The notes: generated by a model from the sequence alone, not told the origin. DNA of 64,000 nt from an uncultured Poribacteria bacterium (GCA_951813545.1 OX638352.1:4867966-4931965), one strand, 5' to 3'; shown: positions 32 to 17,252, numbered from the stretch's first letter. A program made the numbers and translations.

Positions 32-3000
32 TTATGGCGTTTCATCAAGCGGGAAACGGAGTACACCACGACGGAGCGTCCCGACATAAAGCGTGTTATC
101 ATCAACAGTAAAGGAGATGATCGTGCTTGGAACTTCTGGCGTCATCTGTTTCCATGTGCTCGAATTCTCTGTCAATTCATACACCTGTCGTTCCGTTGCA
201 CCATATAGTGTTGTACCGTCTACCGCAAATTTCTCTATCACCAGTGGCGCGCCTTCCGCATCGGTTACTTTATGCCAACGCGTCCCATCGCTTGCATAAG
301 CGACACCTTTATCTGTTGCTACATAAACAGTTGATCCAGCGAAGACGATTGTGTTGTAGGCGGCAACAGAAAATGGGAGATCTGCGGTGACATCATTCCA
401 GGTATCCCCTTCATCAAACGATTGCATGAGGTGTCCATCTTGTTTACCAACATAGAGGGTTTTACCGGACACTGCAAGTTTGACACCGAGAGATTGAATA
501 AGATCATTCGCCTCAGCGTACTCAGCAGAATAGAGGTTAGAAAGATTAGGGGGTTCGGCTTCATCTTTCAACCCCGTGTCATACCATTCAGTCATACCGG
601 GTTTCCATCTGAAAAGCCGCTGCTCGTATTCGACATAGTAGGTATCATCACTAACAGCAAAGTCACCAAAAAACGACATCATACCGGATGATGCTGGGTC
701 TTGGAGAGCCTTATTGAGTGCTTCGTTTTTCTGTCGCTGAAAATCAATGTTATTGTTAAGTGCCTCATTTAACTGATCAGGATCGATATCCATGAGTGCC
801 CTACCTAACTGCTCAGGATCAAGTTCTTCAATTTCTTGCTTACTCTTATCAGTGACTGCTGCCAGTATGGTCTTGAGCATTGCTTCGTCAGGCGTTATCG
901 TCATCTGGACCGTATTACCTCGACCGACATGCCCAAAAGCGGGCATGTCACGAATAAACTTTATGCGACTGCCCTCGGTAGATAGTCGAAGCAGCGGTGA
1001 AGGTGAATTCATTTGATTTCCCCTCTTCGCATAGAGAACACCGTCATAAGCCTTAATAATAACACCGGCATCAATACCGCCGGGGAGCGGTGTCCACGAC
1101 TCACCACCGTCTATTGAAGTGACAAACCCATTCGTTGAATTTGCGTAGAGTTTACCGTTAATAGCGATCAATGTGTTAACGGTCGTGTCCACGAATCCTG
1201 TATTAAACTGATGCCACGATTTACCGCCGTCGGTTGTCCGCTGAATCCCGGGCGGGACACCTCTATAGAAGGTGTTCTTATCTAACATCAGCACAGGTGG
1301 GGCGATCCCGTAATCCCCGAGCTTTAAATCTAAGGAATTCCACGTCTCTCCGGTATTTATAGAGTAGAAAAGTTCTCCGTTCGCATCTACCACCATCACC
1401 CTTTCTGCTGCTGCGACTATCTTGATTTTCGAGAACATCTCCATATCGAATCCAAATCCAACTGGAAATCGACCCTTTCGGTTCCTCTGTTTCTCATTCT
1501 CTAATCTTTCCCACGGATCTATAGAATACCAAGAGTCGCCTGAATCTGTTGAACGGTAAAGCGACCACCATGCGTTATTGGTCATTCCTGATTTAGATTG
1601 CATCTCTGCATCTCTAGCTGCAGCATAAAGCCGGTGCTCTGCAACTACCAAAGCATAGATAGTCGGTTTCTCCGTGCTTACCCCTTCTGGACGAATAGAC
1701 ACTCTTTCCCACGTCCCAGCACTCAGACGATAGAGCCCGTTATTGGTGCCAGCAAATACGGTGTTTTTGACAACGGCGAGTGCGTGAATCCTCTTGGCAT
1801 CCAATCCATCTTTCAGGGATATCCATGATGAACCGCTATCTTGGGAATGATAAACTCCCTCAGTAAGCCCGAGATAAAAGCCTGCGTCGGTTATCACGAA
1901 GCCTGCCGGCACGCCTTTTGGATGGCTGCCGAGCGAGTTCCATGTGCTACCACTATCGGTAGAAGTTAATATTTCCGTGTCAGTAGCGACATAAAGCGTC
2001 TCGCTGCGCTCTACCATTTGTCCGCCACTCATCATCCAATCTTGCACGCTGCGTGAGGTTTCGGTTCCGGCGTTAACAAGTTTCCATGCGCGCCGATCGT
2101 CCGACAATTTGTAAAGACTTGTGGGTGTCCCTGCGTAAACAGCCCCACCTATTGTGGCGAAGAGAGTGTTGACTGCGGCTCCCTCAGGTCCTTTTGTTTG
2201 TATCCACTGCGGTTTCGGTGTTGAAACTTCTGTTTCGTCAACGCGTGCTGCAGCGAAGAGCCGAGCGTCCGGTTTCTGGCCGGCACCCGGGTTTTTACCG
2301 GGGGTAGCCGAACGACCTGCCTGATTCCGAATTGCGGGTTTTGCGGGTGACTCTAAGACAAAAGCTGCCTCAATAATCTCAACCGTCCGTTCCGATGTGG
2401 CGTTTAAATCGTAAGGTTTCTGGAAGCGAGAGAGGTATTGTGTACCAACACCCATCAGTAGGAAAATCAGAACCGCCGAAGCGGCAGAAAGCCCCCATGG
2501 AACCATGGGGTTATTTGCAGCAGGGGCGGTGGGGGCAATACGGGATATCTCCCGCATAATGTTTTCTGTCAATTGCGTAGGCAGTTGGAAACTGCCGAGG
2601 TTTTGTCGGATCATATTTTCTTCCTTCTTTAGACGATTTCGTGCACGGCTAAGCCTGCTTTTAACGGTATTTGGAGAGACACCGAGAAATTCGGAAATGG
2701 TTTTGATTGTCATTTCACCGAGGTAATGAAGTGTCATTACTGTCCTTTCACTCTCAGGCAGTTTTTGGAGCAGTTCCTTGACGACTTCACGACGCGTCTC
2801 ATCGGCTTCGGCTTCCTGTTTCTGTGCCACATATCGAGAGTATGACCCGTGATTTACCTCACTCATATCAGTGACCTCCAAGGATTGTTCCGGTAAGGAT
2901 TTCTTTTGGAACCAGTCAGAGCACAAGCGTGACGCGATGACATAAAGCCATCCTCCAAACAAGTTGTGATTTTTTAATGTTTCGAGTTTCTGGTATGCCC

Positions 3001-3163
3001 TGAGAAACGCGTCCTGTGTAATCTCTTGTGCGATGTGAAAATCACCAATTTTCCGCCACGCGAGGGCATGCACGCCTTTCTGATACTTGTTGACGAGAAG
3101 CGCGAACGCCTCTTGGTTGCCTTGTAGTACCTGTTGAATGAGGTGCGCATCTTTCTGTTCCAT
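32..3163 (-). CDS. ECF-type sigma-70 factor (regions 2 and 4) fused to a TM helix and a C-terminal BNR/Asp-box beta-propeller extension (paralog A)
   Basis: The N-terminus has sigma region 2 (LAWRKIGDFHIAQEITQDAFLRAY) and a region 4 HTH (ERTVMTLHYLGEMTIKTISEFLGVSPNTVKSRLSRARNRL). A hydrophobic TM segment (LSAASAVLIFLLMGVG) follows. The extracytoplasmic part carries many S-x-D-x-G-x-(T/S)-W Asp-box repeats, e.g. STDSGSTW, SQDSGSSW, TTDGGKSW, SIDGGESW and FDEGDTW. Confidence 0.75.
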   Translation of the reverse strand: MEQKDAHLIQQVLQGNQEAFALLVNKYQKGVHALAWRKIGDFHIAQEITQDAFLRAYQKLETLKNHNLFGGWLYVIASRLCSDWFQKKSLPEQSLEVTDMSEVNHGSYSRYVAQKQEAEADETRREVVKELLQKLPESERTVMTLHYLGEMTIKTISEFLGVSPNTVKSRLSRARNRLKKEENMIRQNLGSFQLPTQLTENIMREISRIAPTAPAANNPMVPWGLSAASAVLIFLLMGVGTQYLSRFQKPYDLNATSERTVEIIEAAFVLESPAKPAIRNQAGRSATPGKNPGAGQKPDARLFAAARVDETEVSTPKPQWIQTKGPEGAAVNTLFATIGGAVYAGTPTSLYKLSDDRRAWKLVNAGTETSRSVQDWMMSGGQMVERSETLYVATDTEILTSTDSGSTWNSLGSHPKGVPAGFVITDAGFYLGLTEGVYHSQDSGSSWISLKDGLDAKRIHALAVVKNTVFAGTNNGLYRLSAGTWERVSIRPEGVSTEKPTIYALVVAEHRLYAAARDAEMQSKSGMTNNAWWSLYRSTDSGDSWYSIDPWERLENEKQRNRKGRFPVGFGFDMEMFSKIKIVAAAERVMVVDANGELFYSINTGETWNSLDLKLGDYGIAPPVLMLDKNTFYRGVPPGIQRTTDGGKSWHQFNTGFVDTTVNTLIAINGKLYANSTNGFVTSIDGGESWTPLPGGIDAGVIIKAYDGVLYAKRGNQMNSPSPLLRLSTEGSRIKFIRDMPAFGHVGRGNTVQMTITPDEAMLKTILAAVTDKSKQEIEELDPEQLGRALMDIDPDQLNEALNNNIDFQRQKNEALNKALQDPASSGMMSFFGDFAVSDDTYYVEYEQRLFRWKPGMTEWYDTGLKDEAEPPNLSNLYSAEYAEANDLIQSLGVKLAVSGKTLYVGKQDGHLMQSFDEGDTWNDVTADLPFSVAAYNTIVFAGSTVYVATDKGVAYASDGTRWHKVTDAEGAPLVIEKFAVDGTTLYGATERQVYELTENSSTWKQMTPEVPSTIISFTVDDNTLYVGTLRRGVLRFPLDETP

Positions 3164-3201
3164 TGCCAGCTCCTTTGGAATCCTAACATCTTTTAATTTA
3201 A

Positions 3202-3236
3202 GTGACAGGTTTTAGATATTAAAAGGTTGCATTATT
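3202..3236 (-). promoter_or_regulatory. Conserved ECF-type promoter motif, copy A (minus strand: AATAATGCAACC-N17-TGTCAC)
   Basis: A 36-bp motif shared by six loci in the window. It has an AAC-containing -35-like element, a 17-nt spacer and a CGTC-type -10, and sits about 35 nt upstream of the paralog A start. Confidence 0.45.
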
Positions 3237-3270
3237 TAACGATATTTTCAGAAAGAGGGTTTATGCCAAT

Positions 3271-3297
3271 AAAAAAGGCGCGCTTGGCAGCGCGCCT
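3271..3297 (-). terminator. Rho-independent terminator downstream of paralog B
   Basis: Minus strand reads GGCGCGCTGCCAAGCGCGCC followed by TTTTTT, a GC-rich hairpin with a U-tract. Confidence 0.6.
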
Positions 3298-3369
3298 ACG
3301 ATAATTTAATCACGTTGACAATGACCGCTATGCATCATAGCAAATCTAAACGTAACACAATCTATCCAG

Positions 3370-6300
3370 CTATTCATCAATTGTGAAACGTAGCACACCG
3401 CTGCTGGAAGTCCCGACATAAAGCACGTTGCCATCAACATCAAACGACAAGACGGTATCTGGGATTTCAGGTGTAACTCGTTTCCACGTGTCAGAATTTT
3501 CTTTCAACTGATACGCGTATTGTCCGGATGTCCCATATACCTTCGTGCCATCTACCACAATTTTTTCAATAACAAGTGGGCTGCCTTCACTGTCAACTGC
3601 CTCATGCCATTGGGTTCCATCACTTGAATAAGCGACCCCTTTATCGGTTGCCACATAAACAGTTGCTCCCGCGAAGGCAATTGCATTGAACTTCTCCACA
3701 GGAAACGGAAGATCTGCGGTGACATCGTTCCAAGTTTCGCCCTCATCAAATGATTGAGAGAGATGTCCATCTCGTTTTCCAACGTAAACGGTTTTATTTG
3801 CAACTGCGAGTTTGAAACCCATAGAATTATGAACATCACTAAAAAGAGAAGTACCCGCCGAATAGTCAAAAGGAGTGGACATTAAAGTCGAAATAAAGTT
3901 TTCGCCTTTATCTACTAAACCGGTGTTATACCAGGCATCCGTACCGGATTTCCATCTGAAGAGTCTCTGCTTGTGTTCAACATAATATGTTCCGCCGCTG
4001 ACAGAAAAATTTCCGAACATTGATGTCATAGCGGTTCCAAGTGACTCTAAGACCATCTGATTCGCTGCTTTACTTGCCTCCTCAATATCCTTAGTATCGA
4101 GAACTTCACCGTTCTCAAGGTCTTGCTTAGCTATATTCTTGAGTGCATCGCGTGCTGCCTTATCGTTTTTTCGGTTTAACCGATCCGTGAGTTCATTATT
4201 CAGAGGATCAACCTTTTCAAGAATCTTAGGGATCCCAGGAATAGGAATAAATTTGTCACCCTCTGTAGATAAACGTAGAATCTGAGGTTTTAGGACTGCC
4301 ATACCCTTCATGTAGAGCGCATCGTCAAATTTCCGAAAAACCGATATACCTGCCATAGGCGGCGCATCAACGGTAAATGGTGTCCAAGACTCACCACCGT
4401 CAGTTGAGGTGACAAGCCCGTCCATTTCAGAGGCGTAGAGTTTACCGTTAATGGAGAATAGATCCATAACGGTAGTCCCTGCGAGTCCTGTATTAAGTTG
4501 ATGCCAGGATTCGCCTGCGTCGGTCGTGCGATAGACTCCAGTTTGGCTGCCTCTGTAGAAGGTATCTGCGTCCAACATCACAATTGGTGGCGCTATATTG
4601 TTCATTCCAGCAGACCTATCCTTTAAATCTAAGGAGGTCCATGTCTCGCCAGCATTAACTGAATAGAAAAGTTCGCGTGGATGCGCTAACATAACTTTAG
4701 CACCAGACGTGATTATTTTGAAATTTGAATAGGTAAAATCAACAGGCGTTGAATTGGCACCCTGCGGGGGAAATAGAATTGAAAGCATACCCTTCGGCTT
4801 TCTCTCATTTTCCGTCTTTTTTTTCGGATTTATAGTATACCACGTATCACCTAAATCGGTTGAGCGATAAGCTGACCACCAGTTATCGCCTGTCATTATC
4901 GCTTTGCGTTGGGTGCCGATCTCATTTGTAAATTCCCAACCCGCGGCGACATAGAGACGGTGTTCAGAGGCTGCCAAGGCGTGGACGGTCAGTTTTTGCG
5001 CGCGTTTATCTGCAGTACCCACTGACAACCGTTCCCACGCCTCAGCATTGCGACGATAGAGACCGGTATCGGTACCGACAAACACAGTGTTTTCAACGGA
5101 GACGAGTCCCCGAATCTTCTCGGCTTCTAAGTCATCTTTCAATGATACCCACGCTGTCTGACCGTCTTCAGAAAAATATATATCTTCAATAAATGCAAGG
5201 AAAAAACCCGCGTCGGTGACTGCGAAACCCCTGGGAGCACCTTTTGAATGGTCGCCGAGCGAATTCCATGTCTCTCCAGCGTCTGTGGAAGCTAATACTT
5301 CTGTATCAGTAGCAAGATAGAGCATATCACCGTGCTCCGTCATCTGTATCCCACCCGCTATCCAATCTTGGCTAGCGAGTGCGCTGGCACTTCTTGCATT
5401 AACGAGTCTCCATGTGTGCGTATCGTCGGCGAGTTTATAGAGGCTGGTGGGTGTCCCTGCGTAAATATCACCGGAAGTTGCGGTGAAGAGACTGTTAACG
5501 AGACCGCCTTCCGGTCCCTTTGTTTGTATCCACTGTGGTTTCGGTGTTGAGATTTCGGATTCGTCAATTAGTGCTGCGGCGAAGAGCCGAGCGTCGGGTC
5601 TCTGACCTGCTCCCGGGCTCTTACCCGGAGTAGCCGAACTTCCCGCCTGATTTCGTACTGCAGGTTTCGCGGGTGAATCTAAGACAAAATCTGCCTCAAT
5701 GATCTCAACCGTCCGTTCCGATGTCGCATTCAAATCGTAAGGTTTCTGGAAGCGGGAGAGGTATTGTGTGCCAACACCCATCAGTAGGAAAATCAAGACA
5801 GCTGAGGCTGCTGATAATGCCCACGGCAACATAGGTTTATTCGTAGCAGGTGCTGTGGGAACGATACGCGAGACTTCTTGCATGATGGTCTCTGTTAAGT
5901 TAGCAGGCAGTTGGAAACTGCCGAGGTTTTGTCGGATCATGTCTTCCTCCTTCTTCAAACGGTTACGCGCGCGATTGAGGCGACTCTTCACAGTATTCGG
6001 GGAGACACCGAGGAACTCACTGATGGTTTTGATTGTCATCTCGCCGAGGTAATGGAGCGTCATCACTGTGCGTTCGCTCTCAGGCAGTTTTGGAGCAGTT
6101 TCTTGACGACTTCACGACGTGCCTCATCCGCTTCCGCCGCCTGCTTTCCTGCTATGTATCGAGAATATGACACTTGATTCACCTCGCTTGCCTCGGTAAC
6201 TTCCAAGGATTGCTCCGGCGGGGGATTCTTTCGGAGCCAGTCGAGACACAAGTTTGACGCGATGACATAAAGCCAGCCACCAAACGACTCATAACTTTTC

Positions 6301-6488
6301 AAGGTTCCGAGTTTCTGATATGCTTTGAGAAACGCGTCCTGTGTAATCTCTTGTGCGATGTGGAAGTCGCCAACTTTCCGCCACGCCAGCGCGTGAACCC
6401 CTTTCTGATATTTGTTGACCAACGGCGTAAATGCGTCCTGGTCACCCTCTAATATCCGTTGAATGAGTTCGGCATCTTTCCGTTCCAT
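3370..6488 (-). pseudogene. ECF sigma / TM / Asp-box beta-propeller fusion, paralog B, frameshifted
   Basis: ORF 6063..6488 encodes sigma region 2 and ORF 3370..6066 starts at region 4 (MMTLHYLGEMTIK...), overlapping by 4 nt. Against paralog A, a T5 run (cagtttttggagcag) is T4 here (6088-6091). The 1-nt loss truncates the sigma part before region 4. Confidence 0.5.
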
Positions 6489-6530
6489 TACAAGCCCCTC
6501 CGAAATCGCCTCGCCTATCTTTTATTAAAA

Positions 6531-6566
6531 GTGACGAATTCTGGGTATTGAAAGGTTGCATTATTT
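6531..6566 (-). promoter_or_regulatory. Conserved ECF-type promoter motif, copy B
   Basis: Minus strand reads AATAATGCAACC-tttcaatacccagaatt-CGTCAC, about 40 nt upstream of the paralog B start. Confidence 0.45.
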
Positions 6567-6716: not shown

Positions 6717-7220
6717 TTAGAGCAATTTCTTTTGCCGCATCAGATTCAAGACGGCCGCTGTCATTGCATTGAATTGGTCAGGATTGTCCGCGAAACGGTT
6801 GGCAAGTTCAGCCTCAGGCATCCAGCGGACGGCACGTGTGCCGTCGCCTTCTGCCAGTAAGACCCCTTTAGCACGACAGCGAAAGTATACTCCCATGCCG
6901 TTGAAACCCTGCGTTGTCTGGTAGACAGCGAAGGGTTCGAGACACTCTACTGTAGACTCCATGCTTGAGTGCTTTACTGCCCGCCCTTCAATTTCCTCCA
7001 CCTCCAATCCGGTTTCTTCACGCACTTCACGACGGAGTGCCATCAGCAATGATTCGTACGCCTCCACTGTCCCGCCAGGAAATTCTAAACTTTGTCGTTG
7101 ACCGGGGCGGTCCCGCATTTGCACCACGTACTCGATGCCGTTTTTTCCTTCACGCCAAAGGATAGCACGAGCATTCACAAAGATCTGATGTGCGCGCGGA
7201 ACTTCAATTGTCATTTTCAA
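6717..7220 (-). CDS. NUDIX hydrolase
   Basis: Nudix box GGTVEAYESLLMALRREVREETGLEV matches Gx5Ex7REUxEExGU. Confidence 0.8.
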   Translation of the reverse strand: MKMTIEVPRAHQIFVNARAILWREGKNGIEYVVQMRDRPGQRQSLEFPGGTVEAYESLLMALRREVREETGLEVEEIEGRAVKHSSMESTVECLEPFAVYQTTQGFNGMGVYFRCRAKGVLLAEGDGTRAVRWMPEAELANRFADNPDQFNAMTAAVLNLMRQKKLL

Positions 7221-7582: not shown

Positions 7583-9013
7583 TCAAATATCAGAACGGAA
7601 GAATTTCAGAAACGCCATCGTCGTAAATGCTAACGCAAAAAAACCGAGTAAGAGGACATCCACCGCAGAGCGACGCAATGTGTCCGATAAAGAAGGCTCC
7701 GTCACGGTTGGCGGCGGTGGGATTTTGTCTGTTTCGGATTCAGAAGAATCATTCATCCGAGTCAATATCTGCATAGCCTGTGACATTGCATCGTCTGAAA
7801 CTTCGCTGAAATACGAGTCATCAAGTTGACCGTAGTACCGCTCACCCGTTTGGAAGTAGCCGTCCCTTTTCAATTTACCCGTTTGGGTTAGGTTTATAGC
7901 AATGTATGTCAGAGAGGACGTTGGCACGATCCGAGAAAGTGTCTCTCCGACATATTCTTGCCGCGCCTTCTCACGCTGATAGTCCCGGTCAATTTTGTCC
8001 GCTTGATCCTGGAACTCCTGTCGAAACTGTTCGTTAATCGGCTTTTTGAGTTTATCTATTCTTTCGTCGTCTGAGCGAATAGAGATACCTTCGCTACCTG
8101 CGAAAGTTTCTGTCATTTTTTTGAAAATTTTTTCATCCCTATCTTTCGTCAGGTTGTTGCGAAGTGCCGTTTTTTCCATATAAACCGCCTGCTGTGTCCG
8201 GGTAGGCGCAACGAGTTTAGCAACGACAAACGCGCCGCGTGGTGCGATCAGCACCGCAAATACCCAAAACGTAAAAGCGACAATCAGCGCAGTCTTGGCG
8301 TTATCCAGATAGGTTGAAATGAACACGCCTATCGCAAAAAACACAGCAATATAGAGCAACGAGATAAGCGTCAGACAAAACACGGGCAGCGCAATTTTGA
8401 GCTCACCTAACGGAAATCCCTGCCAAGTGATTAGGAGTAACCCTAACAGGAATGACACCAAAAACGGAACGACAAATACAATGTAGCCACCGATTAACTT
8501 GCTCCACAAGAACACATCTCGCGGAAGGGAGTTCGATAGATTTATCCGCAGCGTTCCTGCCTCTCGCTCCCCTGCCACAGCATCGAAAGTAAACAGAAGT
8601 GCCAGCAGACTGAAAACTGTCCCGACAATAAACAGGAAATCAAGATGTCCTAAGACATACGCAACGGATGCTTGAGAAACCCCTGCTGACCCTTGTCGGA
8701 CCCCATTACGCGTCATTCCAAGATAGGTCGGCAACGCATCCTCTAAACCGTTCGCAAACACGCTCAAAGGTGTAGGTTTAAGGAACAACTTGGAAACCTC
8801 TGTGTTCGGGTCCGACGCATTCGGTGGATTTTCTTTTGCCTCTGTCTGTTCGCGTTTAATCGACTCTTGGTAATCCACAAGGTTCTGGCTATACCTCCGA
8901 TAATTGATCGAAAGGGTGAGTGGCACAAGCAAGAGGCACATTAACAGCAGCGCGACAAACCGAACACTCAAAATGTGGTGCATAATTTCTTTCTGTATCA
9001 ATGTCATTAGCAT
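7583..9013 (-). CDS. ABC-2 family transporter permease-like membrane protein, paralog 1
   Basis: Topology is an N-terminal TM, a large loop, then a block of TMs. It has the ABC-2 permease signature AVAGEREAGTLR. A roughly 200-aa cytoplasmic extension ends in a final TM. No ATPase gene is adjacent. Confidence 0.55.
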   Translation of the reverse strand: MLMTLIQKEIMHHILSVRFVALLLMCLLLVPLTLSINYRRYSQNLVDYQESIKREQTEAKENPPNASDPNTEVSKLFLKPTPLSVFANGLEDALPTYLGMTRNGVRQGSAGVSQASVAYVLGHLDFLFIVGTVFSLLALLFTFDAVAGEREAGTLRINLSNSLPRDVFLWSKLIGGYIVFVVPFLVSFLLGLLLITWQGFPLGELKIALPVFCLTLISLLYIAVFFAIGVFISTYLDNAKTALIVAFTFWVFAVLIAPRGAFVVAKLVAPTRTQQAVYMEKTALRNNLTKDRDEKIFKKMTETFAGSEGISIRSDDERIDKLKKPINEQFRQEFQDQADKIDRDYQREKARQEYVGETLSRIVPTSSLTYIAINLTQTGKLKRDGYFQTGERYYGQLDDSYFSEVSDDAMSQAMQILTRMNDSSESETDKIPPPPTVTEPSLSDTLRRSAVDVLLLGFFALAFTTMAFLKFFRSDI

Positions 9014-9071
9014 GGTGATTTCTCCTCTGTTTTTTTGTTTAGATTTTACAATTACTTAGACATTTTAAAGA

Positions 9072-9220
9072 GGCGAGGATACAATCCTCGCCAGCAGTGA
9101 TGGAGGTTTTTACTTCTAAGGTTTCTGCTTAAAGAGGCGAGGATACAATCCTCGCCAGCAGTGATGGAGGTTTTTACTTCTAAGGTTTCTGCTTAAAGAG
9201 GCGAGGATACAATCCTCGCC
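9072..9220. repeat. Tandem repeat, 64-bp unit in about 2.9 copies, each carrying a family-1 REP hairpin (GGCGAGGATACAATCCTCGCC)
   Basis: The unit aaagaggcgaggatacaatcctcgccagcagtgatggaggtttttacttctaaggtttctgctt is repeated at 9067, 9131 and 9195. Confidence 0.85.
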
Positions 9221-9383
9221 AGCAGTGATGGAGGTTTTTACTTCTAAGGTTTTCCGCCCCTACGGGGAAACCTGGATTTTTTGTCCACGCGCTGCTATAA
9301 ACATGCTGAAGAAACACCCAACCAAATAAACCTTACAGGACTGAAGAAAGGGCTTAGGGTATACACGGTTTTTACCTAAGATC

Positions 9384-9420: not shown

Positions 9421-9469
9421 CGAAGCTGTTCCTTTTCTAAAATTGACACTTATGGTGCAGTTTCCTAAC

Positions 9470-10944
9470 CGCACCATAGGTGTCAATTTAGGGATTTTCG
9501 GTAGCCTCTTTGAGTTTCCAAAAGGTTGTGTTTTTTCCAGTGCTTCTCTGGAAAGTGCCTCCATTTTCAAATGAACACCTTATGGTTTTCAAGGTTTCAC
9601 GAAGTGCTGTTTTTGAGCGATGAAAACTCAAGGTGAGGAGTCTGGCATAACCTGCGATATGCTTCGCTGTTTTGATGAAACTCTGTTGTATGTGTCGGTA
9701 TCCCGCGACTAACATGACGGCATGTTGGATCAGAAGGGCAATAAGTTTCGCATAGATTTCAGATAGCATACGATACGGTTTTTGACTTCGAGAAACATGA
9801 AGTTTTCCGATACTTTTGAAACACTTATACATCAGTTCAACCTGCCAACGGATACCGACAATGGCACAGACCTGTTTCGGTGTGAGTTGATGTTCTTCGG
9901 TATTGGTGATATAGAGGTTGTATCCAGCGAGCCGTAAGAGTGCTTTTGACGGTGTTTGGGCTTTACGTTTGGCACGGTATCGGATGGAGCGTCGGCGTTT
10001 ATTCGTTTCTGCTTCAGAAAGTTTCTCGGCGATGAGGTAAACACGGAGTTGCTTTCTTTTGCCGATCCGTAGCGTCTTACGGATGTAGGTGTTTTCTACT
10101 TCTGCTTTGAGCATCTTTCCTAAATCAATGCGTTCACCGTTTTCATCAGCGAGGTAAGAGTTGGCTTTCAAACGCGAAATCCAGTAGACGTCGTTTTCAG
10201 TGAGTTTTTCAAGTTCATCGAGCGAAAAATATGCTAAGTCTGCGAGTCGTAAACTCCGTTGTGGCAGTGGATCGGCTGCTTTTGCGGCGGTGCTGTCAGC
10301 CGTCATGCCATTAGTCAGTTGGAAGTCGTGAAACCTCCCCGTAAGGATATCAAAGCAGAGATGAAGTTTCAAAGCGGCTTTCTGCCGATGATTCTTTTTC
10401 GGTTGGCCCTTCCACGTCTCGTGGAGTTCATCGGGGAGTGTGATCCACGTGCTATCTTGAATGTAGACACCACTAAACTGCTGAAGTAAAGGCAGGGCTT
10501 CTCGCCGACCGGCAACTTCAAGCATTTCTGTAATCGCAGCGTCAAGTGTGAGTTTCAACATTTTAGCAGTTTCAGGGGTCAGACGTTGTTCAAGTGCTTG
10601 TCGGCTGACTTGTATGCCGAGCGTCGCAGCGGTTTCAGTAAGTTGCTGATAACTCGCCTCTGGGTTTTCCAACCAACCGAGGACGAGGATTTGCGCCAGC
10701 GCACTCCCGGTAAGTTTTCGCTTTCTCTTGACGAACCCTGTAGTGACAGCGACTTCATCTGCAACGGTTTCAAGGATCGTTTGCATTTTATCTGGCACTT
10801 GTTGTAAAATGGACATTGGAGATACCTCTTTTTTGTAGAAATAACCACTACTTTCTTTTCTACATTATACAAGAGGTATTTCCGATTTACACCTTTTTTC
10901 TTACAAGAAAAACATACTTATTTTCCCTAAATTGACACCTATGG
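9470..10944 (-). mobile_element. IS4-superfamily insertion sequence (~1.47 kb) with 23-bp terminal inverted repeats
   Basis: Left TIR gcaccataggtgtcaatttaggg (9470-9492) is the exact reverse complement of right TIR ccctaaattgacacctatggtgc (10922-10944). The element is flanked by a 12-bp direct repeat agtttcctaacc (9458-9469 and 10945-10956), consistent with a TSD. Confidence 0.7.
9488..10816 (-). CDS. DDE transposase, IS4 family
   Basis: 442 aa with a C-terminal R-(3)-E-(6)-K signature (GIRWQVELMYKCFK) typical of IS4-group transposases, lying between the TIRs. Confidence 0.7.
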   Translation of the reverse strand: MSILQQVPDKMQTILETVADEVAVTTGFVKRKRKLTGSALAQILVLGWLENPEASYQQLTETAATLGIQVSRQALEQRLTPETAKMLKLTLDAAITEMLEVAGRREALPLLQQFSGVYIQDSTWITLPDELHETWKGQPKKNHRQKAALKLHLCFDILTGRFHDFQLTNGMTADSTAAKAADPLPQRSLRLADLAYFSLDELEKLTENDVYWISRLKANSYLADENGERIDLGKMLKAEVENTYIRKTLRIGKRKQLRVYLIAEKLSEAETNKRRRSIRYRAKRKAQTPSKALLRLAGYNLYITNTEEHQLTPKQVCAIVGIRWQVELMYKCFKSIGKLHVSRSQKPYRMLSEIYAKLIALLIQHAVMLVAGYRHIQQSFIKTAKHIAGYARLLTLSFHRSKTALRETLKTIRCSFENGGTFQRSTGKNTTFWKLKEATENP

Positions 10945-11017
10945 TGCAGTTTCCTAACCGCACCTACCACGTCGGAATAGACATAATTCGCTGATTTTGC
11001 GTAAGTCCTGAATTGTA

Positions 11018-12448
11018 TTAAATATCGGAGCGGAAGAATTTTAGGAACGCCACCGTAGTCAATACCACTGCAAAAAAACAGAGCAATAGGAGGTCCACCA
11101 TTGATTGACGGAGCACCTCGCCTAAGGTCATAATTTCTAAAGAGGGTGGTTGTGTGATTGTAACGGTATCTTCTGCTCTCATCATTCTCATAGAGATACG
11201 ATCTACAACTTTGCTGAACCAATCCGTATCAAGCGCATCATAATAGCGATGACCCGCTTGAAAGTAATTGTCTCTTTTTGTTTTTCCGGTCTGGGTTAAA
11301 TTTGTTGTGAGATAGATGAGCGAAGATGTTGGTGTGATCCGGGAAAGCATTTCACCTACAGATTCTTGCCGCGCTTTGTCCCGTTTGTAACGTCGATCTA
11401 TTTCGTCAGCACTCTCCTTGAATTTCTGCCGAAATTCCTCCTCAACCGGTTGCACCTCTTTATCCACGTCACTGATGCCCCCAGCCATAGTGTTCGCTAT
11501 CTGTTCATCAAAGGAAGGCTGCTGACGATTTTTCCAGAATTCTTGGTATATCTTCGCTGTCTTTTCTTCAAGTTCTGCGTTGAAATTCTCACGGAGGGCA
11601 GTCTTTTCAAGATAGACACTCTGCGATGTTTGGGTCGGCGCGATGAATTTCGCTGCGAGGAACCCAACACGCGGTGTAATGAGTACGGCAAACACCCAAA
11701 TCGTAAATGCGATAATGAGTGCTGTCTTGGAATTATCTAAATAGGTAGAAATAACCGTTCCAATTGCGAAGAAAACCCCAATGTAGAGTAGCGAAACGAC
11801 AGTTAGACTCACCACCCGTGGAAAGATTTCGGACTCCCCAAGCGGAAAACCTTGCCAAACAAGCATCAGTAAACCCAATAGCAGTGATACCAAGAATGGA
11901 ACGACAAACACTAAGTAACCACCGATCAGCTTACTCCATAGGAAGAGGTCGCGCGGCAAGGAATTTGACAGGGTAATCCGAAGTGTTCCGGCTTCTCGTT
12001 CCCCAGCAACGGCATCAAAAGTAAACAGGAGTGCAAGCAAACTGAAAACAGTGCCGACAAGAAACAGAAAATCGAGATGTCCCAAAAGATAGGAAAGAGA
12101 ATCCGAAACCAAAACTGGAGCACCTTGTGTAATTCCATTGCGTGTCATTCCAAGATAACTTGGTAGGGCATCCCCTAATCCGTTCGCAAACACGCTCAGG
12201 GATGTCGGTTTGAGGAAAAGTTTGGAAACTTCCAACTCCGGCTTCAGTTCCATCTTCGGATTCATCTTTGCTTCCTCGATGTTTGCCAATTTAACGGCTT
12301 CTTGGTAATCAACAAGGTTCTGTTGATAATTTCGATAACCGATAGAAAGCGTAAGTGGAATAAGCAAAACACACATCAGCAAGAGCGCGACAAACCGGAC
12401 GCTGAGCACATGATGCATAATCTCTTTTTGAATCAATGTCATTAACAT
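11018..12448 (-). CDS. ABC-2 family transporter permease-like membrane protein, paralog 2
   Basis: About 70% identical to 7583..9013 and carries the same AVAGEREAGTLR motif. Start chosen at MLMTLIQ (ATG at 12446-12448, preceded by AGGAGA) rather than the longer ORF. Confidence 0.55.
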   Translation of the reverse strand: MLMTLIQKEIMHHVLSVRFVALLLMCVLLIPLTLSIGYRNYQQNLVDYQEAVKLANIEEAKMNPKMELKPELEVSKLFLKPTSLSVFANGLGDALPSYLGMTRNGITQGAPVLVSDSLSYLLGHLDFLFLVGTVFSLLALLFTFDAVAGEREAGTLRITLSNSLPRDLFLWSKLIGGYLVFVVPFLVSLLLGLLMLVWQGFPLGESEIFPRVVSLTVVSLLYIGVFFAIGTVISTYLDNSKTALIIAFTIWVFAVLITPRVGFLAAKFIAPTQTSQSVYLEKTALRENFNAELEEKTAKIYQEFWKNRQQPSFDEQIANTMAGGISDVDKEVQPVEEEFRQKFKESADEIDRRYKRDKARQESVGEMLSRITPTSSLIYLTTNLTQTGKTKRDNYFQAGHRYYDALDTDWFSKVVDRISMRMMRAEDTVTITQPPSLEIMTLGEVLRQSMVDLLLLCFFAVVLTTVAFLKFFRSDI

Positions 12449-12702: not shown

Positions 12703-12723
12703 GGCGAGGATTGTATCCTCGCC
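12703..12723. repeat. Family-1 REP hairpin (GGCGAGGATTGTATCCTCGCC)
   Basis: A member of the dispersed GGCGAGG-N4-8-CCTCGCC family. Other copies: 9072, 9136, 9200, 20907, 23628, 27782, 44866, 49135-49629, 54588 and 57910. Confidence 0.8.
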
Positions 12724-12752
12724 AACGGAGTTCGGAAAGGTGGAATAGAACA

Positions 12753-13985
12753 TCAAGGAGACATCAACACCGATAGCTGCTTAAGGATGTCCTGCCCCTC
12801 TTCCGTCTTAAGGAATTCTTCCCCAAGGTGCGATTGTAGTTGCGACTGTAGTTTTTCCTTAATCTGACCTCTCACCTGCACGGTCACTTGTTGGAGGATA
12901 TCCATACCCATTTGTGTCTCGAGAATACCCTTTCCAAATTGTGCTTCCAGCTCCGGTTTAGCTTGTTCAAGGATACTAACCTCCATGCGATTAAATATCT
13001 TAGGCAAGTGCTTGAATACCAACGTCTCAGTCGCTGCCTTAATTTCCCCTCTGACCGTTTGTGTCTTGAGAAAATTCTCTCCGTGTTGCGACCGTAAGTC
13101 ACGTAAAAAGTCAGATAAGGCAGAAAACTCTGTCTTGTTGCTATTATAGATAGTTCTTTGCGGTCCGTTTCGATAGAGTTTCCCAGTAACACTTAAGTTA
13201 AGGCGATGATGTTCACACCGAACGATGGGAGTCATATCACCTTCCTGCATCCACAGCGTTTCCTGATCCGCTTTTTTAGAAGGACGCATCTCATAGAGAT
13301 AACTACACGGCAGCGTTGGATCCGATGCATCGTCGGTGAGAACGCCGGGAGTTCCTACTGTTGGGTCTGCTGGGCAGAGGAGCACTTTCTTCTCCAAGTA
13401 TTCCGTGGAAAGTTCGGAAAGCCATTGCGGATCTGTATCTGCATTGGAAGCGCGATAGTTGTCCCGTGCCAGTTTTATCTGTCGCAAATTTTCTCTGCAT
13501 GCCGCAATCCCTTTAGAATGCTCAGCGTCCTGTGCAAGTTCATAAGGATAAGCAGCCGCCAAGAGGGATCGGTTTAGGCGAATCAACGCTTCTCCACTTT
13601 TCGGATTTTGGGCAATGCGTGTCTGCGTCTCTTCACTGAGTTCAATATCAGCGAACACTTGTGCATCATAGAGAGGACCCGCTTGAAGCAGCTGATTCAG
13701 ATCTGATAGCAGTGCCTTCTGCAGCTTCGGAGACGGATCGCTTGCGCCATCGTACCCAACTAACAGCCACTGTATATCTTCAGACAATTGCGATGCAATG
13801 AATTTCGACACCGGTGCGCGCGTGTCTTCGAGTTTCACCGCCAAACTGCCCGGATCTTTAATCGCATCCATAGTAAAGAGAAACTGATTTGTTCCTGCAT
13901 GGAGGGGCAGTTGTAGGCACATAGCCATCAGCACAGTGACGAATAGAAGTGTTATTGGCTTGGATCGTTCAATCGTTTTTAACAT
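12753..13985 (-). CDS. Secreted hypothetical protein with N-terminal signal peptide
   Basis: The N-terminus MLKTIERSKPITLLFVTVLMAMCLQLPLHAG looks like a signal peptide. No recognisable domain. It lies between sigma paralog C and permease 2. Confidence 0.45.
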   Translation of the reverse strand: MLKTIERSKPITLLFVTVLMAMCLQLPLHAGTNQFLFTMDAIKDPGSLAVKLEDTRAPVSKFIASQLSEDIQWLLVGYDGASDPSPKLQKALLSDLNQLLQAGPLYDAQVFADIELSEETQTRIAQNPKSGEALIRLNRSLLAAAYPYELAQDAEHSKGIAACRENLRQIKLARDNYRASNADTDPQWLSELSTEYLEKKVLLCPADPTVGTPGVLTDDASDPTLPCSYLYEMRPSKKADQETLWMQEGDMTPIVRCEHHRLNLSVTGKLYRNGPQRTIYNSNKTEFSALSDFLRDLRSQHGENFLKTQTVRGEIKAATETLVFKHLPKIFNRMEVSILEQAKPELEAQFGKGILETQMGMDILQQVTVQVRGQIKEKLQSQLQSHLGEEFLKTEEGQDILKQLSVLMSP

Positions 13986-14099
13986 TTTTCAAAATCTCCT
14001 TAGGGTGTTGTATATTTTAGGTTTCCTATTGGATGGCACAGACTAACAGTCTATGCTACAACCGCACAACCTAACAGGTTATGCTACAGGTTAATGACA

Positions 14100-17000
14100 T
14101 TAGTCGGCTTCATCAATTATGAAACGTAGCACGCCGTGCCCAGGTGTCCCAACATAAAGTGTGTTGCCATCAACAGTAAGAGAACTAATCTCGCTCGGAA
14201 CTTCCGGTGTGACCTGTTTTGCTATGCTTGAATTCTCTTTCAATTGATATATCTGTTGCTCAGTTGCACCGTATACCGTTGTGCCGTCCACTGCCATTTT
14301 TTCTATGACAAGCGGTGTGCCTTCCGCATCGGTTGCCGTGTACCAGCGGATCCCATCGCTTGAATACGTAACACCTTTATCGGTTGCCACGTAAAGCGTT
14401 GGTCCGGCGAAGGCGATAGCCTTGAATTGGGTGACAGAAAACGGGAGGTCTGTCGTGACATCGTTCCAAGTGTCTCCTTCATCAAACGACTGAAGGAGGT
14501 GTCCATCCCGTTTGCCAACGTAAACAGTTTTACCTGAAACTGCGATTTTGAAATCAAGGGAACCCTGATCTTCAATGCCAGCGAAAGAATGAATAGACTC
14601 CCCTTCATCTGCTAAGCCAGTATTGAACCATTCAGTCATACCGGGCTTCCACCTGAAGAGTTGCTGGTTATACTCCATATAGTAAGTACTACCGCTGACA
14701 GCGAAACTCCCGAAATATGCCTGAATCATTTTAACGAGACCTTCCTCTATAGTCTCATTAGCAACTGTGCTAAGTAGATCCATATCGAAATCTTCAGGTT
14801 TTAATCCCGGACTTTCCTCAATGTTTTCCTGAAGTTCATCTTGTACGGGTTCCGGAAGGGCGTTTTTGAATGTTTCAACGATCAGTTTTTCAAGGTCTAT
14901 CCCCTCTACACTTGGCATTTCAGGGACAGGTACTAACCCGTCATCCTCAGCAGATACGCGGAAAAGTTGCGGCAATGTCCCGTTGACACCTTTGACATAG
15001 AGAATATCGTTAAATTCCATCATACCCGTGAGAGTTTCAGGACAATGTAAAACAGGTGTCCACGATTCACCATCATCAAACGAGACCACAAGTTTTCCCC
15101 ATGTTTTTGCGTAGAGCGTATTATTGGCATAGACCAACTTGTCTACACCCGTCCTCACCAATCCAGTGTTAAACGGATGCCACGTTTTGCCTGCATCGGT
15201 CGTGCGCTGAATCCCTAATGGGCTACTACTTTTGTAAAAGGTGTTCACATCCGCTATGACAGCGGTGGGAGTGCCTCCTATAGCTGCCGCTACGACACGG
15301 GTGGAAGGACCTGCTATAGTTGCGGCACCTGGACCTAAAGATATCCATGTTTCCCCGGCATCACTTGAGTAATAACTCTCATCGCCATATACGACTAAAA
15401 GTCTTTCTTGCGCTGCCACCATTTTGACGCTGGCAGTCTTTTCCGTTTCTGAGTTGTCATCCACTTTTGGGTTGTCAGTTCCAACGGTAAAAATAAATCC
15501 ATCGCTTTCCACGGAAACTGTTTTTGGGAAATCTATCGCTTGCCACGAATCTCCGAGGTCTGTTGAACGGTAAAGCGACGGAGAGGTATTAAATACCGAC
15601 ATTGACACGGAGGTCGCAAGTTTCTTATTTTCAATCTCCTCTCCGACGGCAACATAGAGTCGGTGTTCAGCACTTGCCAATGCGAGAATATTCTCGGTTT
15701 CACCTACGGGTAATTGCTCCCAGCCTTCCGAACTGTGGCGATAAAGCCCTTTATCCGTTCCAACAAAGAGAGTATCTGCAATAGCGGCGATTGCCTGAAT
15801 TTTCCTATCGGTTAGGTTTTCGTCGGTAAGAGATGTCCACGATTTACCGGCATCCACAGAGCGGAATACGCCATCAACAAGCCCCAAGTACATTGTAATG
15901 TTGGCTTGCGCCCCAAGGGCATCATCCGTTATGATAGTGCCAATTAATTGCCCTTCTGGACGTGTTCCCAATGAATTCCATGTTCTCCCTCTATCTGCGG
16001 AAGCAAGTACTTCGGTATCGGAAAAGATATAGAGGGTATCCTCATGTTCTGTTATTTGCCACGATTCATTAATAGACATGTTCGTATTAGCGGGTATCCA
16101 TGTGCTTCTATCGTCCGTTAATCTATAGAGGTCCGCGCCAGCTCTGGCATAAACGTCGCCGTTAGATGCCATGAAGAGGTTATTGACTACTCCCCCTTCG
16201 GGGCCCTTCGCTTGTGTCCATTGGGTCTTCGGTGTTGAGACTTCTGCCGTATCGACTGGCAGTGTGGCAAAAAGCGATTCGTCGGATCTCTGACCTGCGC
16301 CTGGACTTTTGCCAGGGATAGCCGAGCTTCCTGCCTGACTCCGAACTGCTGGCTTTGCTGGAGAGTCCACAACAAAAACCGCATCAATAAGCTCAACCGT
16401 CGGTTCCGAGGTGGCACTCAGATTGTAGGGTTTTTGAAAGCGGGAGAGATACTGCGTGCCAACACCCATCATTAAGAAAATCAAGATAGCGGAGGCAGCA
16501 GAGATTGCTAAGGGTGCGACCGGTTTACTCACAGCAGGTGGAACGGGTGCTATACGTGAAACTTCCTGCATAATGTTATCCGCTAAGTTATCAGGGAGTT
16601 GGAAGCTGCCGAGGTTCTGCTGAATTACGTCTTCCTCTTTCCGCAAACGGTTGCGTGCGCGGCTGAGGCGGCTTTTGACGGTATTCTGGGAGACACCGAG
16701 GAACTCACTGATGGCTTTGATTGTCATTTCACCGAGGTAATGGAGCGTCATCACCGTCCGTTCGCTTTCCGGTAATTTCTTGAGCAGCTCCTTGACGACC
16801 TCGCGGCGCGTTTCGTCGGCTTCGGCTTCCTGTTTTTCTGCTACATATTGAGAATATGACACTTTGTCCACCTCGTTTGAATCGGCAGTATCAAGGGATT
16901 CCATGGGTATGCGGTTTTTTCGGAGCCAATCAAGGCACTCGCGGGCTACGATAACGTAAAGCCATCCGCTAAACGCGTTAGGGTCCTTCAATGTCCGTAG

Positions 17001-17177
17001 TTGCCGGTACGCCTTGAGAAACGCGTCCTGCGTAAGTTCTTGGGCGATGTGAAAATCACCGATTTTCCGCCACGCCAGCGCGTGAACCCCTTTTTGATAT
17101 TTCTTGACTAAGGGACTGAACGCTTCCTGGTTCCCTTGCAATACCTGCTGAATGAGTTGCGCATCGCTCTGTTGCAT
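14100..17177 (-). CDS. ECF sigma / TM / Asp-box beta-propeller fusion, paralog C
   Basis: Same architecture as paralog A: region 2 LAWRKIGDFHIAQELTQDAFLKAY, region 4 HTH, a TM segment, and Asp-box repeats such as SADRGRTW, SVDAGKSW, STDLGDSW, TTDAGKTW, FDDGESW and FDEGDTW. Confidence 0.75.
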   Translation of the reverse strand: MQQSDAQLIQQVLQGNQEAFSPLVKKYQKGVHALAWRKIGDFHIAQELTQDAFLKAYRQLRTLKDPNAFSGWLYVIVARECLDWLRKNRIPMESLDTADSNEVDKVSYSQYVAEKQEAEADETRREVVKELLKKLPESERTVMTLHYLGEMTIKAISEFLGVSQNTVKSRLSRARNRLRKEEDVIQQNLGSFQLPDNLADNIMQEVSRIAPVPPAVSKPVAPLAISAASAILIFLMMGVGTQYLSRFQKPYNLSATSEPTVELIDAVFVVDSPAKPAVRSQAGSSAIPGKSPGAGQRSDESLFATLPVDTAEVSTPKTQWTQAKGPEGGVVNNLFMASNGDVYARAGADLYRLTDDRSTWIPANTNMSINESWQITEHEDTLYIFSDTEVLASADRGRTWNSLGTRPEGQLIGTIITDDALGAQANITMYLGLVDGVFRSVDAGKSWTSLTDENLTDRKIQAIAAIADTLFVGTDKGLYRHSSEGWEQLPVGETENILALASAEHRLYVAVGEEIENKKLATSVSMSVFNTSPSLYRSTDLGDSWQAIDFPKTVSVESDGFIFTVGTDNPKVDDNSETEKTASVKMVAAQERLLVVYGDESYYSSDAGETWISLGPGAATIAGPSTRVVAAAIGGTPTAVIADVNTFYKSSSPLGIQRTTDAGKTWHPFNTGLVRTGVDKLVYANNTLYAKTWGKLVVSFDDGESWTPVLHCPETLTGMMEFNDILYVKGVNGTLPQLFRVSAEDDGLVPVPEMPSVEGIDLEKLIVETFKNALPEPVQDELQENIEESPGLKPEDFDMDLLSTVANETIEEGLVKMIQAYFGSFAVSGSTYYMEYNQQLFRWKPGMTEWFNTGLADEGESIHSFAGIEDQGSLDFKIAVSGKTVYVGKRDGHLLQSFDEGDTWNDVTTDLPFSVTQFKAIAFAGPTLYVATDKGVTYSSDGIRWYTATDAEGTPLVIEKMAVDGTTVYGATEQQIYQLKENSSIAKQVTPEVPSEISSLTVDGNTLYVGTPGHGVLRFIIDEAD

Positions 17178-17216
17178 TGCACGCCTCCTCTCAAATTATT
17201 ACGTCTGTTGGTTTAA

Positions 17217-17252
17217 GTGACGTAACTTAGATTTCAAAAGGTTGCATTATTT
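17217..17252 (-). promoter_or_regulatory. Conserved ECF-type promoter motif, copy C
   Basis: Minus strand reads AATAATGCAACC-ttttgaaatctaagtta-CGTCAC, 40 nt upstream of the paralog C start. Confidence 0.45.

Follow-up and report, generated by a model that had tools for sequence, protein, structure and literature searches.

Paralogous, putatively membrane-anchored extracytoplasmic function sigma factors with Asp-box propeller heads in an uncultured Poribacteria bacterium

The DNA analysed here (the window) is a 64,000-nt segment from an uncultured Poribacteria bacterium (GCA_951813545.1 OX638352.1:4867966-4931965). Poribacteria are uncultivated sponge symbionts and carbohydrate degraders. The first 17 kb of the window hold a run of minus-strand genes which, in the order of transcription, are sig3, unk410, abc2, an IS4-type insertion sequence (IS), abc1, a NUDIX hydrolase gene, sig2 and sig1. 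The three sig genes, all found at the positions given in the original prediction, encode fusions of an extracytoplasmic function (ECF) sigma factor, a transmembrane (TM) helix and an Asp-box beta-propeller domain. The sig3 gene (14100-17177) is intact and encodes 1025 aa, sig1 (32-3163) is likewise intact and encodes a 1043-aa fusion of the same architecture, and sig2 (3370-6488) is split by a 1-nt deletion into two open reading frames (ORFs; 6063-6488 and 3370-6066). A set of 76 related loci, which with the window amounts to 1.1 Mb, was used for comparison, the window proteins being mapped on them by tblastn; individual loci are referred to below by number (L001 and so on).

In the sig3 product, the ECF sigma domain occupies residues 1-183 and is followed by a linker, a TM helix at residues ~221-247, a stalk at ~248-320 and tandem Asp-box beta-propellers at ~330-1020. 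Pfam, NCBIfam, hydropathy, AlphaFold and Foldseek agree on this layout, in which an ECF sigma factor, one TM helix and an extracytoplasmic propeller share a single polypeptide as had been predicted. All three fusions matched the Pfam models Sigma70_r2 (E-values of 1e-11 to 5e-15) and Sigma70_r4_2 (1e-16 to 1e-17), which lie inside residues 6-183 of the sig1 and sig3 products and are divided between the two ORFs of sig2. Sigma70_ECF also matched within these residues, sigma regions 1 and 3 had no Pfam matches, and the NCBIfam model TIGR02937 (sigma70-ECF) scored 99.6 bits against a cut-off of 42.9. The predicted domain content, with sigma2 and sigma4 present and regions 1.1 and 3 absent, is the hallmark of ECF (group 4) sigma factors. 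The nearest solved relative of the sigma domain is B. subtilis SigW (5wuq, E-value 2e-24), and the best specific NCBIfam models are also those of SigW, namely PRK09641 (119 bits, cut-off 209) and TIGR02948 (105 bits, cut-off 243). SigW is the nearest relative by sequence, but with scores below both cut-offs the fusions are not members of the SigW equivalog (ECF30-like).

Exactly one hydrophobic segment per fusion was detected by the Kyte-Doolittle method (residues ~220-240, score 2.0-2.2), and it coincides with a helix at residues 221-247 in the AlphaFold model. Both sigma regions and the TM helix, on whose detection the original prediction had been made to depend, are thus present. As the sigma domain has to be cytoplasmic, the helix would be oriented with its N-terminal side inside the cell. 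The linker between sigma4 and the membrane comprises ~35 residues (184-219) and contains no Cys and no His.

The C-terminal 700-800 residues gave Pfam matches to Sortilin-Vps10, BNR, PSII_BNR and DUF6242, and the Asp-box motif S-x-D-x-G-x-[ST]-W occurs 6-7 times per copy (seven times in sig3) in the C-terminal ~700 residues. In the AlphaFold model, the head (predicted local distance difference test score, pLDDT, mostly 70-90) has ~14-15 four-stranded blades and a helical insert of ~60 residues (762-821). The top Foldseek matches of the head in the PDB were xyloglucanases of glycoside hydrolase family 74 (GH74; 2cn2 with an E-value of 5e-19, 5fkt and 7kn8; E-values of ~1e-18, ~850 aligned columns), followed by the periplasmic sensor domains of the Bacteroides hybrid two-component systems BT4673 and BT4663 (2e-16 to 5e-15), with identities of 10-15% and TM-scores of 0.3-0.4 throughout. 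Structure prediction for the propeller, which had been proposed as a check, thus returned one TM helix and a tandem-propeller model of GH74-like fold. The two tandem 7-bladed beta-propellers that characterise GH74 are matched by the modelled head at fold level, and the resemblance of the head to GH74 is at fold level only.

With sigma, TM helix and propeller on one chain, the proteins belong, as predicted, to the C-terminally extended ECF type. An assembly or annotation artefact was ruled out as the source of the fusion, more than 100 full-length homologs being present in independent assemblies. An adjacent anti-sigma gene is typical of ECF sigma factors, and not defining. No anti-sigma gene or domain was found by Pfam among the neighbours, the downstream genes being unk410 or another fusion; apparently, the extension stands in for such a gene. 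Given that there is neither a separate anti-sigma gene nor an anti-sigma domain recognised by Pfam, the extension is the obvious regulator.

A search for homologs returned 6965 matches at E-values of 1e-3 or less, a total that includes unrelated ECF sigma factors and BNR proteins, and among the matches listed 120 of 120 were near-full-length fusions. In an HMMER scan of 1.8 billion cluster representatives, 405 clusters (50% identity) were found at E-values of 1e-30 or less. With these numbers, the description of the fusion type as rare does not apply within Poribacteria. All full-length homologs at 60-93% identity are named Candidatus Poribacteria and are labelled in the databases merely as "sigma-70 family RNA polymerase sigma factor". 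No description of the fusion family was found in the literature on Poribacteria or BNR with ECF or sigma, and the family appears so far confined to Poribacteria-labelled sequences.

In many of the best 150 representatives from the HMMER scan, which are 440-1377 residues long, the match was limited to residues 1-300 at ~50% identity, and the remainder of the protein was a different head. WD40 was found in 29 of 58 sampled proteins, and the other alternatives include Transglut_core, Trypsin_2 with TPR, GHL15 and the lectin-like Laminin_G_3; the sister protein P0299 carries a trypsin-like domain in its extension. The linker (FQ..PNLT.NI..E), the prolines preceding the helix and the stalk (G.QYL.RFQ.PY...) are kept regardless of the head domain, and those members that could be placed are on Poribacteria contigs. 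On one of these (L077 1-15213; GCA_001753035.1, MKWU01000028.1), five fusion genes stand in tandem on one strand, three of the WD40 type and two of the BNR type. As judged by these comparisons, the first ~300 residues, comprising sigma, linker, TM helix and stalk, are a chassis that in Poribacteria is joined to varied sensors. The BNR-propeller type belongs, as one of several branches, to a large modular family not described before.

The regions 5' of sig1, sig2 and sig3 have in common the motif AATAATGCAACCTTT-N15-CGTCAC, or in shorter form AATAATGCAACC-N18-CGTCAC, located ~40 nt from the start. The copy of sig3 (17217-17251) ends ~40 nt before the ATG, a position kept in related loci, and the motif search placed those of sig2 and sig1 at 6531-6565 and 3202-3236, respectively. 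There are six exact matches in the 64-kb window, all on the minus (gene) strand. In addition to the three before fusions, two stand in tandem (17592-17626 and 17695-17729) before a small minus-strand ORF of 57 aa (17340-17513; MRFLMINLFLV...GIGYLAFG...), whose N-terminus is a membrane anchor or a signal peptide, and one (21390-21424) precedes a minus-strand gene for a 113-aa STAS-domain protein of the anti-sigma-antagonist family (20967-21308). When two mismatches were allowed, seven matches were obtained, the seventh lying within the IS4 transposase gene; none of 100 shuffles reached seven, and the shuffle mean was 1.5. The extent originally assigned to the locus, 32-17252, therefore covers the core genes but misses two promoter copies with the small ORF (17340-17729) and the STAS gene with its promoter (20967-21424).

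The motif was present in 57 of the 76 related loci, with 107 of 108 matches on the strand of the sigma gene, and the intergenic sequence flanking it is not conserved there. The genes 3' of it in the relatives are fusions, the STAS gene (also in L001, L006, L019, L022, L025 and L026), MRFxMINL small ORFs, of which homologs follow the motif in most related loci, and a gene for a ~465-aa protein with the anchor of the small ORF (MRFxMINLFLV...GIGYLAF) and an AhpC/thioredoxin fold (L001 6621-8009, L006, L037 and L045). The latter gene is absent from the window. Doubled motifs ~103 nt apart were also found again in related loci. Pfam gave nothing for the 57-aa ORF at E-values up to 10; the possibility that its product is an anti-sigma factor was rejected, as essentially no cytoplasmic N-terminus precedes the hydrophobic segment.

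The form of the motif, with an AAC-type -35 element, a spacer and a CGTC -10 element, is that expected of an ECF promoter. It resembles the consensus recognised by SigW, TGAAAC-N16-CGTA. The location of each fusion gene behind an ECF-type promoter, another hallmark of ECF sigma factors, would imply autoregulation. The promoter-recognition parts of the sigma domain are near-identical in the three paralogs, which therefore probably share a promoter class, so that the fusions would activate their own and each other's transcription. Upstream of the WD40-type genes in L077, a variant motif, ATGCACCC-N17/18-CGTC[AT], is found and not ATGCAACC...CGTCAC, a difference that hints at promoter classes specific to subfamilies. 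In a metaproteome of the sponge Aplysina aerophoba, the most abundant protein cluster is reported to be a "putative sigma factor antagonist" (PMC6081418), which may or may not be a counterpart of the STAS protein encoded behind the motif.

The fold of the head raises the question of whether the C-terminal domain might act as a GH74-like glycoside hydrolase anchored at the surface, the sigma part being vestigial or a membrane-targeting module. GH74 xyloglucanases are the best structural matches, there is a sub-threshold NCBIfam match to the glycosylhydrolase family NF045728, and a passage in PMC8163846 gives glycoside hydrolases as abundant in sponge symbionts. Yet the sigma part is the most conserved portion, with many invariant residues: DNA identity among the three paralogs is ~80% over the first 900 nt versus 50-65% in most of the head. 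Upstream, the matching promoter has been kept, and the same chassis bears heads that are not enzymes (WD40, TPR). The identity to GH74 is just 12-15%, and a hydrolase with a vestigial or merely targeting sigma domain is considered very improbable.

The age of the three copies was judged from their divergence. The fusions are 65-70% identical to one another in DNA and 57-60% in protein, and each has an ortholog at 85-93% identity in other Poribacteria genomes, where the gene order is kept and which differ from the source at 76-93% protein identity. As closer orthologs exist in other Poribacteria and the identity between the copies is low, the duplications would predate the divergence of these genomes. 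The three fusions are, on these identities, old paralogs, and the claim that the locus had been recently amplified could not be upheld.

One copy had been described as frameshifted, and this was traced to the middle gene, sig2, which is one A short in a run of five (A4 is left, at ~6088-6092); restoring the A yields a protein of 1039 aa. The sig2 ortholog in L001 is intact with A5 at the site (92% and 91% identity in DNA and protein, respectively), and over 3.1 kb the two differ in length only by the missing A and one in-frame 3-nt indel. Either the gene was inactivated very recently, or the homopolymer was misassembled. Programmed frameshifting and slippage of transcription at the A-run were both rejected, since no more than 4-5 A are present and the L001 gene just has the intact A5 form.

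Both permease genes, abc2 (11018-12448) and abc1 (7583-9013), were identified by Pfam and hydropathy. Their products matched ABC2_membrane_2 (PF12679; E-values of 6e-29 for abc1 and 5e-32 for abc2) and are 64% identical in protein, in agreement with the paralogous permeases of the original prediction, and have the six hydrophobic segments that are the hallmark of the ABC-2 family of ATP-binding cassette (ABC) permeases. A long cytoplasmic tail had been ascribed to them; instead, ~190 additional residues separate the fifth hydrophobic segment from the sixth. The abc1 product is weakly similar to NosY (7o0y, E-value 0.002) and GldF. Both termini of NosY are inside the cell, and with the same arrangement in the window permeases the ~190-residue insert would face outward.

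The predicted IS4 element was found between the two permease genes (9454-10964, minus strand). Its transposase gene (9488-10816) gave a match to DDE_Tnp_1 (PF01609, E-value 2e-24), and it is bounded by imperfect terminal inverted repeats (9454-9494 and 10924-10964) with 41-nt arms that are 85% complementary; a DDE_Tnp_1 transposase flanked by inverted repeats is the hallmark of the IS4 family. The element is missing from the same spacer in related genomes. Orthologs of abc2 are 97% identical in L002 and L019, where both window permeases are represented at 90-97% with no IS between them, and tandem permeases without any IS also occur in L006 and other loci. No intrinsic-terminator-like site follows sig3 or unk410, and a strong one, a minus-strand hairpin with a T-run at 3276-3297, is found 3' of sig2. 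Since both permease copies are kept without the IS in L002 and L019, the window would carry sig3, unk410, abc2 and abc1 as one operon-like unit with the IS4 element in the abc2-abc1 spacer. The element thus does lie between permeases, but these are tandem copies belonging to one unit and not parts of two modules.

A recent duplication of two modules of sigma factor and permease, possibly mediated by the IS4 element, would account for three fusions and two permeases within 17 kb and for the position of the IS. It is at odds with the divergence of the fusions (65-70% in DNA) and of the permeases (64% in protein), with the orthologs at 85-97% that each copy has elsewhere in the same order, and with the IS-free tandem permeases of L002, L006, L019 and other loci, and we give it next to no credence.

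The unk410 gene (12753-13985, minus strand) encodes a Cys-rich protein of 410 aa with a signal/anchor sequence, four invariant Cys and three C-terminal G-x-x-FLKT-x-EG-x-DIL repeats. It had zero matches in Pfam, NCBIfam and the PDB, its AlphaFold model is poor (pLDDT 52), and its homologs are solely Poribacteria-labelled. Neighbours were counted where 3.2 kb or more of sequence was available downstream of the fusion. Among 55 loci of the sig3 type, unk410 directly follows the fusion and is itself followed by ABC-2 genes in 36 (median gap ~120 nt), ABC-2 follows directly in 8, and neither is found in 11, whereas none of 19 sig1-type loci has unk410 or ABC-2 downstream. The number of ABC-2 genes in the 36 loci with unk410 is one in 25, two in 9 and three in 2. 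The statement that each fusion sits near a permease is therefore correct for the sig3 type only, and the comparative check of co-occurrence came out positive for this type and negative for the sig1 type.

A search for ORFs adjoining the permeases and combining Walker A, LSGGQ and Walker B motifs found none in the 1.1 Mb of window and related loci, and no ABC ATPase is in the gene table of L001. A different module is present in L036-L042 and L045, where a stand-alone ECF sigma factor of 179 aa (e.g. L040 6001-6531), 33-35% identical to the sigma part of the fusions, is encoded immediately 5' of a fusion that is followed directly by ABC-2, with no unk410.

These neighbours may be the output of the sig3-type sigma factor or, alternatively, the unk410 protein and an ATPase-less ABC-2 permease may form its sensing or release apparatus by holding the stalk or controlling its cleavage, in the manner of sensing Bce-type transporters or of EcsAB, on which the activity of RasP depends in Bacillus. 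The latter is suggested by the strict, subfamily-specific synteny (36 loci with fusion, unk410 and ABC-2, and 8 with ABC-2 directly), the lack of ABC ATPase motifs near the permeases in the 76 loci and the window, the family-specific ~190-residue insert placed outside the cell by the topology, and the predicted export of the Cys-rich unk410 protein. Nevertheless, fusions of the sig1 and WD40 types have the same chassis without such neighbours, so the pair is not a general need. Co-transcription would equally be expected of target genes of an autoregulated sigma factor, and the permease retains a typical ABC-2 cytoplasmic loop sequence, which leaves room for a distant ATPase partner. A role of the pair in sensing or release is hence a possibility that we regard as unlikely and still worth attention.

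Taken together, the data are best described by three old paralogs of one-component, membrane-anchored ECF sigma factors that activate themselves and each other and are released by proteolysis after a signal, a reading that we favour with some reservation. The cytoplasmic sigma2-sigma4 part would be connected by the linker and one TM helix to an extracytoplasmic stalk of 60-80 residues and a ligand-binding head of two Asp-box propellers, and anchoring to the membrane would keep sigma from RNA polymerase. When the propeller perceives a signal, the stalk would be exposed to a site-1 protease; a glycan, suggested by the fold matches of the head, or some other polymer of the surface would be the most plausible signal. 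An intramembrane protease would then cut the TM helix and free the sigma factor with a short tail. Through one promoter the sigma factor would drive a small regulon, consisting of the STAS protein, the small membrane protein and, in relatives, the membrane-anchored thioredoxin/peroxiredoxin-like protein. The transcript of the sig3-type paralog would also include the genes for a Cys-rich exported protein and for one to three ABC-2 permeases, as accessory partners or as direct output.

That regulated proteolysis releases sigma may reasonably be supposed by analogy with sigma/anti-sigma hybrids, the precedents being IutY and the behaviour proposed for ECF48, ECF52 and ECF53 (PMC8999054), whereas the conserved stalk and the trypsin-like domain of P0299 give only indirect hints of site-1/site-2 cleavage. 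Several points count against this mechanism. No site-2 protease gene is present in the window, and the protease, the cleavage site and an anti-sigma domain were not identified; Pfam at E-values up to 10 found no match, and thus no anti-sigma domain, in residues 175-330 (linker, TM helix and stalk). In the AlphaFold model, the pLDDT values of the sigma part are 30-50, too low to judge whether a linker helix masks sigma, and the GH74 likeness of the head is just at fold level (12-15% identity, TM-score 0.3-0.4). The motif was defined in the window and then sought in relatives, so its conservation could partly reflect shared ancestry, although the intergenic sequence on either side of it is not kept.

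The failure to find an anti-sigma domain or a protease speaks for a mechanism in which sigma is never released and works tethered, like ToxR or CadC, the propeller altering its oligomeric state or conformation so that RNA polymerase is recruited at the membrane. The ~35-residue linker is conserved and could be a signalling element instead of a degradable tail. However, the tethered sigma factor would have to enter the RNA polymerase holoenzyme 35 residues from the membrane, for which no precedent is known to us. Moreover, the one characterised membrane-anchored hybrid in PMC8999054, IutY, is activated by proteolysis, and the same was proposed for the ECF52 member SCO4117 from truncation data. 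Permanent tethering is accordingly judged improbable, and release remains the preferred explanation.

A broader interpretation, put forward as speculative and rather doubtful, is that Poribacteria possess a combinatorial array of such proteins, with dozens of paralogs per genome (up to five in tandem), swapped heads and one promoter per subfamily, in which the stalk, unk410 and the ATPase-less ABC-2 permease would serve as a release or gating device unlike the site-1/site-2 route. If this were true, a single envelope regulon would integrate many different surface signals. In bacterial one-component signalling, the least understood class is that of ECF sigma factors to which a TM sensor extension is fused, one (IutY) or at most two having been studied experimentally. 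The family described here would offer a great number of natural domain swaps on an unchanging chassis, with a clearly recognisable cognate promoter and with the stalk as an obvious candidate for the regulated step, so that the release mechanism and the rules of sensor re-wiring could be tested in a heterologous host. For sponge microbiology, it suggests that Poribacteria may perceive polymers of host or particle origin by a major route that has so far escaped notice.

Several further features of the window deserve mention. The NUDIX hydrolase gene (6717-7220, minus strand), located between a permease gene and the next fusion, is a kept neighbour in several genomes. Between the IS4 element and the start of abc1 are three perfect tandem 64-nt repeats (9065-9256), each with the hairpin GGCGAGGATACAATCCTCGCC. 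This 21-nt palindrome, which resembles repetitive extragenic palindromic (REP) sequences, has seven sites in the window, three in 9072-9220 and the others at 12703-12723, 23628-23648, 54588-54608 and 57910-57930. A second palindrome family, GTAGCATAGGCTGTTAGCCTGTG, has five sites, at 14037-14059 (in the sig3-unk410 spacer), 17972-18030, 18109-18131 and 55317-55339, two of them in a tandem repeat (36-nt period, 2.2 copies) that is located upstream of the promoter cluster. The STAS gene and the small ORF are separated by a TnpB gene (OrfB_IS605 / Cas12f-like TNB; 18386-19648, plus strand; associated hairpin at 18150-18178) and by a gene for a PD40 beta-propeller (19715-20755). The corresponding interval of L001 measures just ~1 kb and has no called gene, so that the TnpB/PD40 interval looks like an insertion into the regulon region.

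At higher coordinates, a very long array of clustered regularly interspaced short palindromic repeats (CRISPR) at 35133-44322, with 138 copies of the 30-nt repeat GTTTCTATTCCATACTGGTTCGATTAAAAG and spacers of ~36 nt, explains a 10-kb stretch without long ORFs. It is followed by a minus-strand type I cas operon (44934-54540) encoding Cas1, Cas3 (HD and helicase), Cas5, Cas7/DevR, a CXXC_CXXC large subunit and Cas6. A degenerate extra repeat is located inside the cas region (53648-53677), and an IS200-like Y1 transposase ORF (48918-49544) separates cas3 from cas5. Two other transposase genes, one IS5-like with its HTH_Tnp_4 and DDE_Tnp_4 parts in separate ORFs and the other of the DDE_5 type, are at 26702-27650 and 60000-61013. 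The region is thus rich in insertion sequences, with IS4, TnpB, Y1, IS5-like and DDE_5 genes. Rfam and tRNA scans of the window gave no matches.

Among characterised systems, the permeases are closest to those of the NosY/GldF type, whose genes adjoin genes for exported accessory proteins (NosD and GldG). The six-TM ABC2_membrane_2 fold and an adjoining gene for an exported protein are shared, but the window permeases differ in having no adjacent ATPase gene (76 loci), the ~190-residue TM5-TM6 insert and one to three tandem copies. The head resembles GH74 xyloglucanases in having two 7-bladed Asp-box propellers in ~700-750 residues; the latter are secreted enzymes, whereas the heads described here sit on membrane-anchored proteins and include the ~60-residue helical insert (762-821). 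A parallel in layout is provided by BT4663 and BT4673, in which an extracytoplasmic tandem propeller serves as a glycan sensor and one TM helix links it to a transcription module in the cytoplasm. However, their output is histidine kinase, receiver and AraC and not sigma, the identity is ~10%, and the propeller repeat is of another type. SigW is freed when a single-pass anti-sigma factor is cleaved at site 1 by PrsW and at site 2 by RasP. The SigW-RsiW pair shares with the fusions the nearest sigma domain by sequence and a similar promoter form, but SigW and RsiW are separate proteins, and the fusions consist of one chain and score below the SigW cut-offs.

ECF sigma factors with a TM and extracytoplasmic extension are already known, and the comparison with their groups made here is based on the text of a review (PMC8999054). 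The review describes IutY as a sigma/anti-sigma hybrid released by Prc and RseP, and also the actinobacterial groups ECF48, ECF52 and ECF53. IutY of Pseudomonas putida (ECF243) likewise unites an N-terminal ECF sigma factor, a membrane span and an extracytoplasmic C-terminal part in one chain, its single TM helix between sigma and the extracytoplasmic domain recurs in all three paralogs, and by analogy it would be the best functional model for the proposed mechanism. On the other hand, it is a FecI-FecR fusion that has a TonB-dependent receptor partner and acts in iron signalling, whereas the fusions of the window have no FecR, a SigW-like sigma domain and a double-propeller head. The extension of ECF52 and ECF53 (e.g. 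SCO4117 of Streptomyces coelicolor) contains one or two TM helices and, outside the cytoplasm, a carbohydrate-binding or glycosyl-hydrolase-like domain, and proteolytic activation was proposed for these proteins (PMC8999054). Their C-terminal TM and extracytoplasmic design is similar, but they include a zinc-finger (ZAS-like) element and extend over at most ~400 residues, whereas the Poribacteria proteins, from another phylum, have no zf-HC2, no Cys or His in the linker and an extension of ~840 residues.

The planctomycete groups ECF01-Gob and ECF57 combine an ECF sigma factor with a large WD40 extension and have many paralogs per genome (PMC8999054, PMC8567305). A large beta-propeller extension is common to them and the window fusions, and the WD40 heads of the Poribacteria sister subfamilies increase the likeness. 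Nevertheless, the window proteins have BNR/Asp-box in place of WD40 repeats, and whereas ECF57 is described as having two conserved Cys that link sigma2 and sigma4 (PMC8999054), the window proteins have one conserved Cys, C81, and none in sigma4. As judged by their sequences, the window proteins therefore miss the tested hallmarks of these groups, namely a FecR domain, a zinc finger, WD40 and the two-Cys pair. The design of an ECF sigma factor fused through a TM helix to an extracytoplasmic domain is thus shared with IutY, ECF52/53 and the WD40-bearing planctomycete ECF sigma factors; what is new in the Poribacteria family is the common chassis, the common promoter and the conserved partner genes.

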